From IMG/VR virus record IMGVR_UViG_2547132272_000015: a DNA stretch of 5,727 nucleotides; one strand, written 5' to 3'. Below are positions 2,815 to 4,921 of this stretch, in pieces. A program made the position numbers and the translations under genes. Position 1 is the stretch's first letter. The number at the start of each line of letters is the position of its first letter. This DNA comes from a virus. Its lineage: Duplodnaviria > Heunggongvirae > Uroviricota > Caudoviricetes. Below the pieces are notes generated by a model. It worked only from the letters and a program-made list of their open reading frames with translations. It was not told where the DNA came from and did not search any database.

Positions 2815-2879
2815 ATGTAAAAACAGCAGCTCAGTTTCGTGAGCTGCTCAAATTCAAAAATCCCGCAGGAGTATTGTAA
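2586..2879 (+). CDS. C-terminal (-1 frame) part of the frameshift-interrupted gene; fused product would be about 228 aa
   Basis: Frame is open from 2571 with good codon usage. Its stop TAA at 2877-2879 overlaps the ATG at 2879 of the 680-aa gene (TAATG coupling). Confidence 0.5.
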   Translation: MRLVDKFPGADEGDYGCGEWNMEHSMLVLESYGMDRFIADIEACRQFWRDGEHVISDILDYSAGAGFRDICADSGLNVKTAAQFRELLKFKNPAGVL

Positions 2880-4921
2880 TGTCAGGTAATCAGATGCCAG
2901 TTCTGACGCTGGACGTTAATGAAGAACACCTCAAACGGCTTGAGGCAATTTTTGAAAAGTATCGCAACGGGCTGATGATCGGCCCTGCCGGAACGCCGAT
3001 GAAAATACCGGGGCAAAGTGGGCGCAGCGTGGGGGCAGGCTTACCCGTGGCGGCAAAATCTGGTCGGACAGGACCGGATGTATCCGGGAGAGTGAGGGAC
3101 GAAAAAGGGCGCTTTGTCGGCAGTGGAAAAACAGCAGATTCGTTCGTAAGCAACTATAAAGGTCGCGGCGAAACGATGTTTGATAAGTATCTCAGCGGGC
3201 TGGGGAAAAATGCCCAACAGACGCTGAAAACTTACAAGCAGATCAATTCTACGCTACAGACGACCACTTCGAGATTAAACAACCTGTTTAAAACAACCGT
3301 ATCGTGGGGGACAAAACTTGCGGTTATGGGCGTTGCCGGGCCGTTTGGCTTTGGCATGATGTCTCGTAGTGTTGTAGAGAAACAGAAAAATGCAGATGAG
3401 CTGGTGGCAACGCCGGGAGAATTAAAGGCGGCAGAGAGTACCTATTCACCTTATTTTTCCGGTGTTGGCAATGTGCTCAATACACTGGCAGCCGCGCAAA
3501 ATGATCAAGAACACCCCGCCCGCGTTGGCCTGCTTCATCTGGGGATTAATCCTGATAAAAACGCGACTGAAAACCTGCCTGTATTCCTGAAAAAGGTTGC
3601 AGAGCTGGCAAAGGAATATCAGGGAAGTGGTCTTACCCAGAGTATGCTCAGGGGAAGAGGGCTTGGATGGGTAAATTTTGGTCTTACTAACCAGTTAGTC
3701 AAATATCAGGACAAAATACCTGAACTCAACAAAGAGTTTTCGTTACGTGCAGCGCAGAATGATTCGTTGCTCACTTCTGGACATACAAGCCAGTATCAGA
3801 ATCTTACCAGCAAATTAGAAAATAACTGGGATCGGCTTACCAGTGGGTTTCAGGGAGCGATGTCGGGTAATTCTGAACAACTGATTGGAATATCTAATGG
3901 CGTCACGAATGCTGCCCTGAATTTCATGAATGGTGAGAACTTTAAAAGGATTCTGACTGATGTTGAAACGGGGCTGGATAAACTTGGTAAGTACGTTAAT
4001 GGCCCGGATTTTAATAACGACCTGAACAATTTTGCCGAAAACGTTGCAAAGGTCACCAAGGCACTTAGCGGATTTGTTGGTTTTGCCGTTGAACATCCCT
4101 GGCTTTTTGGGGCCGCAGTGCTTGCGGGGCCATCAAGAGTTGGTGCTGTGGCAGCTACAACAACCGGAGTTGCCGCCCGTGTTGTAGGCGGAAGCCTTCT
4201 TGGGGCTACAGCCGGAACGGTCGCAGGATTGGCTATTCCTACAAATAACACACCAACAACCAGTGAGGAAATGAAAGGACTGGAGGGACGTTTCAACTTT
4301 GATTATTTTAACGAAGTACAGGAGTGGCAAAAAAACAATCCGGGTAAGGTCTGGCCTGGAGGATTGCAGAAATATTCTAACAATGTAAACAGGTCAGCAT
4401 ATTTATCCAGAGGGATCAGGAATAACAATCCCGGAAACCTTAATTTCGCAGGACAAAAAGGGGCGACCCTGGAATCAGGGCCAAATGCCCGTTTTGCCAG
4501 CTTTCCGACGATGCTGGAAGGTATCGCCGCCTTAGATCGGCAGGTCATGCTATACCTGAAACGCGGCAAAAATACGATTGATCAGATTATTGATATTTAT
4601 GCCCCTTCATCTGATGGAAATAACACATCGTCCTATAAAAGCTATCTCTCTCAGTACACCGGATTAGGTGTTAAGGAGAAAATTGATGGTTCTAATTTTG
4701 AGGTCATGAAAAAGCTAATTCAGGGCATTATTAACCATGAAAATGGTGCTGCCGCTAAAGCTGTAAGTGTTGAAGATGTGATCCGGGCGCTGGCTATGAA
4801 TCGTGGGATTGTCCCTACAGCAGGAAATAATAATCAGAACGTTAAGCTTGATATTCTTCAAAAACCAGGCTCCGACATAGTCGCTCAACTGGCCGGATTT
4901 TCGGGGCTTATGCCGAGGTAA
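2879..4921 (+). CDS. large Gly/Asn-rich protein with two hydrophobic segments; tape-measure-like or ejection/membrane-interacting protein (tentative)
   Basis: 680-aa ORF coupled to the upstream gene. Hydrophobic segment around nt 3311-3364 and a long Gly/Ala-rich hydrophobic stretch around nt 4091-4240. Conserved-looking C-terminal block RGIRNNNPGNLNF at nt 4409-4447. Sits directly downstream of the frameshift pair, as tape-measure genes do. Confidence 0.8.
   Translation: MSGNQMPVLTLDVNEEHLKRLEAIFEKYRNGLMIGPAGTPMKIPGQSGRSVGAGLPVAAKSGRTGPDVSGRVRDEKGRFVGSGKTADSFVSNYKGRGETMFDKYLSGLGKNAQQTLKTYKQINSTLQTTTSRLNNLFKTTVSWGTKLAVMGVAGPFGFGMMSRSVVEKQKNADELVATPGELKAAESTYSPYFSGVGNVLNTLAAAQNDQEHPARVGLLHLGINPDKNATENLPVFLKKVAELAKEYQGSGLTQSMLRGRGLGWVNFGLTNQLVKYQDKIPELNKEFSLRAAQNDSLLTSGHTSQYQNLTSKLENNWDRLTSGFQGAMSGNSEQLIGISNGVTNAALNFMNGENFKRILTDVETGLDKLGKYVNGPDFNNDLNNFAENVAKVTKALSGFVGFAVEHPWLFGAAVLAGPSRVGAVAATTTGVAARVVGGSLLGATAGTVAGLAIPTNNTPTTSEEMKGLEGRFNFDYFNEVQEWQKNNPGKVWPGGLQKYSNNVNRSAYLSRGIRNNNPGNLNFAGQKGATLESGPNARFASFPTMLEGIAALDRQVMLYLKRGKNTIDQIIDIYAPSSDGNNTSSYKSYLSQYTGLGVKEKIDGSNFEVMKKLIQGIINHENGAAAKAVSVEDVIRALAMNRGIVPTAGNNNQNVKLDILQKPGSDIVAQLAGFSGLMPR

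Follow-up and report, generated by a model that had tools for sequence, protein, structure and literature searches.

A predicted tape measure protein with an Enc34-type glycosidase end, and its chaperone, in a probable PICI-like phage satellite of Escherichia coli and Salmonella

Results

A chaperone gene and a predicted tape measure gene

The stretch of DNA analysed here (the window; 5,727 nucleotides of IMG/VR virus record IMGVR_UViG_2547132272_000015) carries a two-gene cassette consisting of a tail assembly chaperone gene and, directly after it, a gene that very probably encodes a tape measure protein (TMP). The original prediction, made from the letters and a list of open reading frames (ORFs), had named a tape measure, a membrane-penetrating ejection protein and a virion-associated, wall-acting protein as options for the second gene product. 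The features of the cassette are as follows.

2197..2814 (+): tail assembly chaperone, 205 residues, 0-frame product; phrog_11810; first gene of the cassette
2571..2879 (+): -1 extension of the chaperone (G/GT-like long form); phrog_14324, E = 3.5e-61
2577..2583 (+): slippery heptamer T_TTT_TTT, in the reading phase of the chaperone; part of a T8 run (2576-2583)
2879..4921 (+): predicted TMP gene, 680 residues, from the ORF call; full-length match to phrog_7694; 85-98% identity to the gene of Rac-type prophages
3305..3361 (+): hydrophobic segment 1, residues 143-161, WGTKLAVMGVAGPFGFGMM, from hydropathy; kept in phage copies
3371..3778 (+): compact all-helical domain, residues ~165-300; AlphaFold2 predicted local distance difference test score (pLDDT) > 90
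4064..4243 (+): Gly/Ala/Thr-rich hydrophobic stretch, residues ~396-455; candidate membrane-inserting segment
4400..4813 (+): predicted Enc34-type (PHA02564) peptidoglycan glycosidase domain, residues ~508-645, holding RGIRNNNPGNLNF, Tyr574, Tyr586 and Glu621 (codon 4739-4741)
4898..4921 (+): satellite-specific last seven codons (FSGLMPR) and stop, forming the right-hand junction, from the junction alignment

The second gene is an ATG-initiated ORF from 2879 to 4921 (+), stop included, and its 680-residue product is rich in Gly (11.5%) and Asn (8.8%), in agreement with the original prediction. An AGGAG lies 8 nucleotides (nt) 5' of the ATG, which itself overlaps the TAA of the upstream -1 frame (TAATG). 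The protein is matched over its whole length by phrog_7694 (E = 3e-296) and is identical to a database protein of Escherichia sp. TW09231 (P0001); searches with it returned 6064 cluster representatives at E <= 1e-3, and a scan of genome contigs gave a single distant locus, in Yersinia similis, with 50% identity over the N-terminal 443 residues. The matches, together with the mainly synonymous differences between satellite copies described below, put the ORF far beyond chance.

The first gene encodes a protein that is 82-90% identical to the product of the 205-residue gene directly upstream of the TMP gene in phages of the Rac-SA53 type, hereafter called helper-type phages. No canonical X_XXY_YYZ site other than the heptamer T_TTT_TTT occurs in the overlap; the heptamer is placed where the -1 frame opens, and this frame is open from 2571 to 2879 with a translation 93% identical to the -1 frame of the helper prophage. 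By sequence, the 205-residue ORF together with the -1 frame has the hallmarks of a tail assembly chaperone of the G/GT type with a predicted frameshift. The earlier argument that the position of the 680-residue ORF after a frameshifted gene pair fits a TMP is thus supported by the in-phase heptamer and the conserved -1 ORF, the frameshift being predicted.

The AlphaFold2 model of the TMP, obtained with 65 diverse homologues, has 24 helices and almost no strand at a mean pLDDT of 65, the confident regions being residues ~165-300 and ~545-645. For the helical domain formed by residues 165-300, a PDB search returned no solved relative above noise. The original prediction had located the hydrophobic segments and the C-terminal motif block correctly to within a few residues: the first segment covers residues 143-161, the second covers ~396-455 (Gly 17%, Ala 22%; Kyte-Doolittle 19-mer maximum 1.66) and is modelled as partly helical at low pLDDT, and the motifs RGIRNNNPGNLNF and NTIDQIIDIYAP occupy residues 511-523 and 565-576, respectively. 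The Gly/Ala/Thr-rich stretch is missing from the TMP allele of phage Rac-SA53, which ends in an SLT-type domain.

Position, length and fold of the predicted tape measure protein

We compared gene order across two deposited phages and complete E. coli and Salmonella prophages, and found it to run portal, 440-residue DUF2213 protein, major capsid protein, sheath, tube, 205-residue gene, TMP, 222-residue protein, 88-residue protein, baseplate hub (phrog_196), baseplate J and fibres. The phage and prophage homologues of the window protein, of 657-693 residues, lie between sheath (phrog_205), tube and 205-residue chaperone on one side and the hub on the other, and homologues 85-98% identical to it occupy the interval between tube/chaperone and hub in complete phages and prophages. 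Judged by these alignments, the homologues occupy the site expected of a tape measure in a contractile tail module, and the TMP type is that of Rac-SA53-like temperate phages with contractile tails. In the window itself, the chaperone is the only tail neighbour of the TMP. Moreover, BFVD fold matches of the TMP model include proteins annotated as GpH-type tape measure and as tail lysozyme. Position in phages, frameshift chaperone and helical model together make a tape measure, the first option of the original prediction, the best-supported identity. Two objections raised there were given up: 680 residues, considered short for a TMP, fall within the 657-693 residues that are normal in this phage group, and the sequence, considered not obviously coiled-coil, gives a mostly helical model.

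Weighing against a tape measure, curated TMP models in Pfam and NCBIfam gave no match at E <= 0.1 (both collections returned nothing significant for the TMP, the chaperone or the 197-residue ORF of the window, orf197), and the match to the PHROG 'tail length tape measure' family phrog_2276 is confined to the C-terminal lytic domain. TMPs are notoriously diverse, so that the missing match weakens the assignment without excluding it, and the assignment rests on position, chaperone and architecture. A separate ejection or lysis protein that does not set tail length and shares only the lytic domain with tape measures would account for the missing match, and the same domain is also found in the Enc34 endolysin and at the N-terminus of proteins of 1200-1300 residues (annotated as tail-injection and internal virion proteins in PHROGs and BFVD); however, we hold this explanation to be very improbable, since the interval between tube/chaperone and hub in the phages holds no other candidate gene, a frameshifting chaperone gene lies directly 5' of the TMP gene, and the protein is long and helical with neither holin nor signal sequence nearby. 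On sequence and model we are confident in identifying a TMP that ends in an Enc34-type glycosidase. The ejection and wall-acting functions offered earlier as alternatives are both roles of such TMPs, and hence stand as roles and fall as competing identities.

The C-terminal lytic domain

The C-terminal motif, which the original prediction could not place in a catalytic family, belongs to an Enc34/PHA02564 glycosidase domain according to phmmer, a profile match and a Glu/Tyr signature, the activity being predicted. Residues 508-625 match the catalytic domain of the Hafnia phage Enc34 endolysin (PDB 7Q47) with a phmmer E of 1.2e-10, and a profile search of the lytic domain against 7Q47 gave E = 1.1e-28. 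Among solved structures, the best sequence match to the lytic domain is the N-terminus of chain L of 9vvp ('Gp29', 1295 residues; E = 2.8e-12; profile 1e-36), the two solved-chain matches extending over residues 508-638 of the TMP. From its size and its BFVD neighbours ('internal virion protein D'), Gp29 is probably a podovirus ejection protein.

The PHA02564 family is a diverged lysozyme-like glycosidase family with catalytic Glu131 accompanied by Tyr95 and Trp79 (Cernooka et al. 2022, PMC8943055). In our alignment, Glu621, Tyr586 and Tyr574 of the TMP correspond to Glu131, Tyr95 and the aromatic residue 79 of Enc34 (the chain index being the number in PMC8943055 plus 1), and among 47 domain-bearing homologues the Glu and the Tyr are invariant and position 574 is Tyr or Trp. 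The domain is all-helical and resembles the lysozyme alpha-lobe, as does Enc34 7Q47.

The RefSeq name of the window protein is 'lytic transglycosylase domain-containing protein'. An SLT/GH23 transglycosylase was considered and rejected, as this name describes the role roughly correctly and the family wrongly: a search for an SLT domain with a Glu-Ser motif gave no Pfam SLT match in the TMP. In sister TMP alleles (Rac-SA53, pPE4 and a prophage of E. coli TUM1881) an SLT domain occupies the position of the Enc34-type domain, and their C-terminal domains cannot be aligned with that of the window protein, which suggests that a wall-cutting end is a conserved requirement and that the type of domain is exchangeable.

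In PHROGs and BFVD, other bearers of the domain have the annotations endolysin, tail-injection transglycosylase and internal virion protein. In Enc34 it forms part of a free endolysin with a C-terminal membrane anchor, whereas in the window it is the C-terminal module of a predicted virion protein. TMPs with a C-terminal peptidoglycan hydrolase domain reportedly include T5 Pb2 and that of mycobacteriophage TM4. Like such TMPs, for example the SLT allele of the Rac-SA53 group, the window protein is long and helical, is encoded after a frameshifting chaperone, has hydrophobic segments and carries its predicted wall-cutting domain at the end that leaves the tail first. Unlike them, it has an Enc34/PHA02564 module instead of an SLT or peptidase module, and its gene appears to lie in a satellite.

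The window as part of a PICI-like satellite

Chromosomal islands of E. coli share 92-97% identity with the window, and comparison with them identifies it as the morphogenesis operon of a probable satellite of 11-15 kb that resembles the phage-inducible chromosomal islands (PICIs) and occurs in E. coli, a cryptic Escherichia clade and Salmonella. Hence, the window probably lies in a phage satellite and not in a phage. The observation of the original prediction that no distal tail genes follow the TMP is correct for the window and is explained by the location of the gene pair in a satellite. Outside the cassette, the window carries the following genes.

166..453 (+): PerC-family activator; PF06069, E = 2e-32; kept in all islands compared
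859..2200 (+): two genes, of 197 (859-1452) and 227 residues (1517-2200); phrog_6216, DUF2213; homologous to the 440-residue protein of the helper
4927..5454 (+): 175-residue protein with an N-terminal helix-turn-helix (HTH); directly after the DUF2213 gene where the cassette is absent

Neither island end is inside the window, and flanking repeats were searched for in relatives. The island of E. coli TUM1881 (L001) spans 14.4 kb between 26-bp direct repeats, and two others are bounded by 23-bp repeats 15.1 kb apart (L005) and 16-bp repeats 10.9 kb apart (L007). The TUM1881 island encodes, in order, a tyrosine integrase, AlpA (PF05930, E = 3e-18), an AntA-type antirepressor, an Icd-like protein, a DUF4222 protein, an AAA_25 helicase, ProQ/FinO, PerC, a 57-residue ORF, a 192-197-residue ORF, a 223-227-residue DUF2213 protein, the chaperone, the TMP, the 175-residue HTH protein and small ORFs. 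As expected for a PICI, an integrase gene is followed in one orientation by alpA and then by a replication module (helicase or primase). Capsid, portal, terminase and lysis genes were neither annotated nor detected in L001, L005, L007 and L020-L027, sheath and tube genes are likewise missing from the islands, and baseplate genes from that of TUM1881. The islands depart from the classical PICI definition, which excludes tail genes, by carrying either chaperone and TMP or an 88-residue protein and a hub (E. coli 08-00022).

The satellite core is found at several sites in the chromosome, where it is combined with differing integrase and replication modules, and it is also present in Salmonella. 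In the core ProQ-PerC-orf57-orf192-DUF2213-orf175-orf59, conservation is 93-100%, except for orf175 and orf59 (78-99%), and the integrase and replication modules are swapped. These observations also bear on the possibility that the island is a decayed Rac-type prophage remnant that keeps a few morphogenesis genes. All morphogenesis-related genes do have Rac-type prophage homologues and the TUM1881 island lies ~6 kb from a Rac-site prophage, yet a remnant is a very poor account of an element with its own integrase, AlpA, replication module and direct-repeat ends, a compact gene order repeated at different chromosomal sites and in Salmonella, a core so conserved while its integrase and replication modules are exchanged, split and reordered DUF2213 homologues just 54-65% identical to the phage gene, and strong co-occurrence with complete helper prophages.

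A two-gene cassette in a variable slot

Sequence comparison among islands and phages shows that chaperone and TMP form a cassette of two genes, which occupies a single slot after the DUF2213 gene and before orf175. Homology to phage DNA starts exactly at the chaperone start (2197) and breaks off at 4897, with seven TMP codons left before the stop. The six phage copies checked all have the ending ...QQIPG, which none of the six satellite copies checked shares; the endings seen there are FSGLMPR, AQRFLG, VWVPR and AQQFHR, the last 5-7 residues being derived from the junction. Such satellite-type C-terminal ends are carried by ~75 of the 120 nearest database proteins, and one satellite-type TMP allele is present in 110 assembly blocks. 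The same chaperone-TMP arrangement is found in the Salmonella satellite.

The slot is not always occupied in this way. In the EC11 island, the 175-residue gene follows 7 nt after the DUF2213 stop with no trace of the chaperone-TMP pair, and in the ETEC6335 island an internal deletion has removed all but a 5' piece of the chaperone gene and the 3' end of the TMP gene. In E. coli 08-00022 (L027 10804-12107), genes of 88 and 345 residues replace chaperone and TMP, their products being 78-84% identical to the 88-residue protein and 71-72% identical to the baseplate hub of the helper, respectively. The 88-residue and hub genes also fill the slot in OkiPb01676 (hit H155), and a SieB superinfection-exclusion gene lies downstream in the 08-00022 locus.

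Two candidate distinctions between satellite and phage TMPs were discarded. A short N-terminal linker (33 versus 40-45 residues after GPAGTP) failed as a mark of satellite copies, as P0095, P0013 and P0074 have it and lie in complete prophages. An altered tail length was likewise rejected, satellite copies having 678-680 residues and the closest phage copies 679 (phage extremes 657-693).

Selection and recombination

Compared between satellites, copies of the TMP show a ratio of nonsynonymous to synonymous substitution rates (dN/dS) of 0.13-0.19, and those of the chaperone one of 0.10-0.16 (dS 0.12-0.32); by this measure, the cassette is under purifying selection and is maintained rather than decaying. 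Compared with prophage L015, the cassette of the window shows 100% nt identity at cassette nt 601-900 and 2101-2700 and just 82-85% identity over the first 600 nt, and the two TMPs are distinguished by 16 of 680 positions, of which the replaced tail accounts for six. Identity of the TMP to phage alleles ranges from 44 to 98% depending on the allele. A separate clade of satellite copies was not upheld, as a neighbour-joining tree and sliding windows revealed mosaicism. These sequence patterns indicate that the cassette still recombines with helper phages.

The presumed helper phage

Matches to deposited phages are confined to positions 2197-4897 of the window and come from Escherichia phage Rac-SA53 and Actinobacillus phage vB_Apl-pPE4 (as deposited). 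The helper is likely a Rac-SA53-type phage, as suggested by DUF2213 homology and by co-occurrence of the tail module. The 197-residue satellite protein corresponds to the C-terminal third (65% identity), and the 227-residue protein to the N-terminal DUF2213 half (54%), of the 440-residue protease/scaffold-like protein of the helper. In the satellite these homologues are two separate genes in an order inverted relative to the single gene of the helper, and the split pair looks like a device for capsid assembly or for redirecting capsid size. The helper-type tail module, present in 89 of 5426 genomes, was also found in at least 15 of the 34 satellite-bearing complete genomes when co-occurrence was counted among the 60 of these 89 that were listed, compared with 0.56 expected (P ~7e-19, ignoring clonal relatedness).

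Besides its satellite, TUM1881 contains two helper-type prophages. The one at the Rac site (L013, 3425000-3470000), ~6 kb from the satellite, encodes a 657-residue SLT-type TMP that is identical to the satellite TMP in the first 40 residues and ~50% identical over the first 450, and has an unrelated lytic domain. The second (H98, 2959674-2961612) is 99.9% identical to prophage L015 in the hub region. No SLT-type TMP was found in satellites, the single candidate checked (H39) being a prophage.

Discussion

A proposed function for the cassette

We lean towards the interpretation that the satellite TMP is built into tails made by the helper, to the benefit of the satellite. The benefit is suggested by selection on the cassette, its placement in the operon, the existence of a second cassette type and the precedent of the Vibrio PLE satellites discussed below. 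Upon induction of a helper prophage, the satellite would excise, replicate and express orf57/65, the split DUF2213 homologues, chaperone, TMP and orf175. The chaperone, in its short and its -1 frameshifted long form, would keep the satellite TMP soluble and deliver it to the helper hub, and helper tube and sheath would then polymerise around it, giving tails that are helper-built on the outside with a satellite-encoded core. At infection, the expelled TMP may cut peptidoglycan locally with its Enc34-type glycosidase (Glu621, Tyr586, Tyr574), and its Gly/Ala-rich hydrophobic segments may help to form a DNA conduit through the inner membrane. As to the pay-off, our favoured guess is that the satellite becomes independent of, or different from, the TMP allele of the resident helper; a different allele could evade blocks aimed at the tail core of the helper (compare the SLT end of the TUM1881 helper).

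Several points weigh against such a role. The clean absence in EC11 and the deletion remnant in ETEC6335 mean that the cassette is dispensable for the backbone, and replacement of the last 5-7 TMP residues in every satellite copy could impair docking. Near-identity of the TMP to phage alleles (98% for L015) leaves little obvious room for selective incorporation or for escape from anything directed at such a helper. Furthermore, we infer both the mobilisation of the satellite and the entry of its TMP into virions.

The strongest competing explanation, to which we give a distinctly lower probability, is that chaperone and TMP are a hitch-hiking pair, acquired from the helper by recombination during co-replication and kept intact through gene conversion, with no service to the satellite. 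The blocks of 100% nt identity (cassette nt 601-900 and 2101-2700) beside blocks of 82% would fit such traffic, as would satellites with an empty slot or a deletion remnant, and no other gene co-varies with the cassette. On the other hand, the cassette extends exactly from start codon to near the stop, sits in an operon and has kept its translational coupling. Low dN/dS at appreciable dS between satellites, and the many distinct intact alleles in E. coli and Salmonella at several integration sites, also speak against mere hitch-hiking, and the slot independently holds a second pair of helper tail-core genes (88-residue protein and hub), which looks used and not accidental.

Less probable still, in our view, is an interference weapon, in which a dominant-negative TMP with altered C-terminus would enter or titrate helper tail assembly and lower helper yield. 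The phage ending ...QQIPG is gone from each of the six satellite copies checked, which could point in this direction, and satellite and prophage defences that act on tail assembly are known (Tai, PMC11364771; Rta, PMC12987554). However, a satellite without other tail genes would lose its tails too, the conserved motif PGSDI[VL]AQLAG, which directly precedes the end, is intact in the window, a chaperone of its own argues for productive folding, and the known tail blockers are small unrelated proteins.

Returning to incorporation of the satellite TMP into helper-made tails, a further and more tentative extension is that the DUF2213-orf175 slot is a dedicated tail-core swap site, in which either chaperone and TMP or the 88-residue protein and hub would replace helper parts of the DNA conduit; we regard this as possible, though on balance doubtful. 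If true, satellite particles would have a chimeric-tail core unlike that of the resident helper, for example with an Enc34-type instead of an SLT-type end, and could enter, or assemble in, cells where the helper core is blocked. Since the cassette keeps recombining with phages, satellites might in that case also act as a reservoir shuttling TMP alleles between helpers.

Further features of the satellite

The ProQ/FinO and PerC genes (window 1-453; L001 19639-20453) are 97-99% conserved in E. coli islands with unrelated integrases and 90-91% conserved at the Salmonella locus, whose contig includes just the 3' end of ProQ. In Vibrio PLE, a small RNA binds the chaperone and hub transcripts of the helper (PMC12987554), and together with the ProQ/PerC core this precedent raises the idea of RNA-level control of helper tail genes.

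Directly 3' of the 175-residue HTH gene lies an array of the 10-mer AAAGTGTCAA (window 5459-5690), with forward copies at 5461, 5515, 5596 and 5652 and a reverse copy at 5489. A fifth forward copy is located just past the window and the array runs on to L001 25742-25751. Three other satellites share the array, and it is missing from the helper loci retrieved; it may serve as a packaging (pac) site, or its copies may be iterons to which the HTH protein binds.

Right after perC, positions 493-523 form a strong terminator-like hairpin of 12 pairs (7 G-C) with a T-rich tail, and a weak promoter-like site at 601-628 precedes the morphogenesis operon. Together they suggest a separately controlled late operon, the number of terminator- and promoter-like sites in the window being not above shuffled expectation.

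Compared with L001 (22160-22181, A6-7), the window has one extra A (A8) at 2176-2200, which adds 4 residues to its DUF2213 protein (...NRVSES) and makes the gene overlap the start of the chaperone (ATGA); ETEC6335 has the same variant. Several genomes of porcine ETEC contain two to four copies of the satellite-specific segment at different chromosomal sites (for instance four in ETEC1747 and three in ETEC4077), suggesting several related satellites per cell.

Comparison with known satellites

To our knowledge, all well-studied satellites were until 2025-26 thought to use helper tails unchanged. In Vibrio PLE satellites, a self-encoded TMP and chaperone, in some cases joined by a baseplate hub, take the place of their counterparts from phage ICP1 in chimeric tails (Mathur, Boyd et al., Nature 2026, PMC12987554), and deletion of the PLE tmp gene cuts transduction by 96-99.9% (PMC12987554). 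Satellite-encoded TMPs were first demonstrated in these PLEs (PMC12987554), and TMP-bearing satellites in Mycolicibacterium were described in a 2025 preprint (PMC12822802). Like a PLE, the present satellite lacks tube, sheath and fibre genes and has a TMP and a chaperone for a contractile-tailed helper, and some members have a baseplate-hub gene (BhuB of PLE11; the 345-residue gene of E. coli 08-00022). PLE TMPs are ~20% identical to that of ICP1, whereas the window TMP is 85-98% identical to helper alleles and still recombining with them. PLE TMPs occur in all PLEs and were shown to be incorporated and required, whereas the TMP described here occurs in part of its family and is known from sequence. 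Unlike the PLE elements, the window TMP has a lytic domain and the backbone is PICI-like (int-AlpA). We looked for a partner resembling Rta, the PLE11 blocker of the helper TMP, and found no gene co-varying with the cassette in 8 islands, the Rta sequence itself not being compared; PADLOC gave no hit on ten satellite proteins.

The backbone may in turn be compared with the PICIs. Gram-negative PICIs such as EcCICFT073, associated with the work of Fillol-Salom et al. (2018, 2019), are said to measure ~10-15 kb, with int followed by co-oriented alpA and a replication module, then an operon for morphogenesis or packaging interference, and reportedly use several integration sites. We know of no classical PICI with tail genes. 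The present satellites resemble the EcCICFT073 type in island size, int-alpA order, replication module, late operon and use of several sites. In contrast to classical PICIs, they have split DUF2213 homologues, ProQ/FinO, PerC and a slot with helper tail-core genes, and their presumed helper is a contractile-tailed Rac-type phage. A literature search found no report of this E. coli/Salmonella satellite family, which is not proof of its absence. We read the chaperone- and TMP-bearing satellite as a new enterobacterial variant of satellite-encoded TMPs, its function being a proposal.

Conclusion

The analysis documents a recent exchange of a structural gene between satellite and phage, and corrects the database name of a widespread protein, which would carry an Enc34-type glycosidase on a tape measure and not an SLT transglycosylase. 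The PLE work left open why chimeric tails arise and how general they are. The locus described here points to a second, unrelated satellite family that may act in a similar way in E. coli and Salmonella, both of them easy to manipulate genetically. The natural, isogenic-like variants of the slot (empty, chaperone and TMP, remnant, 88-residue protein and hub), together with the clearly different TMP alleles of some resident helpers, make the benefit to the satellite directly testable.

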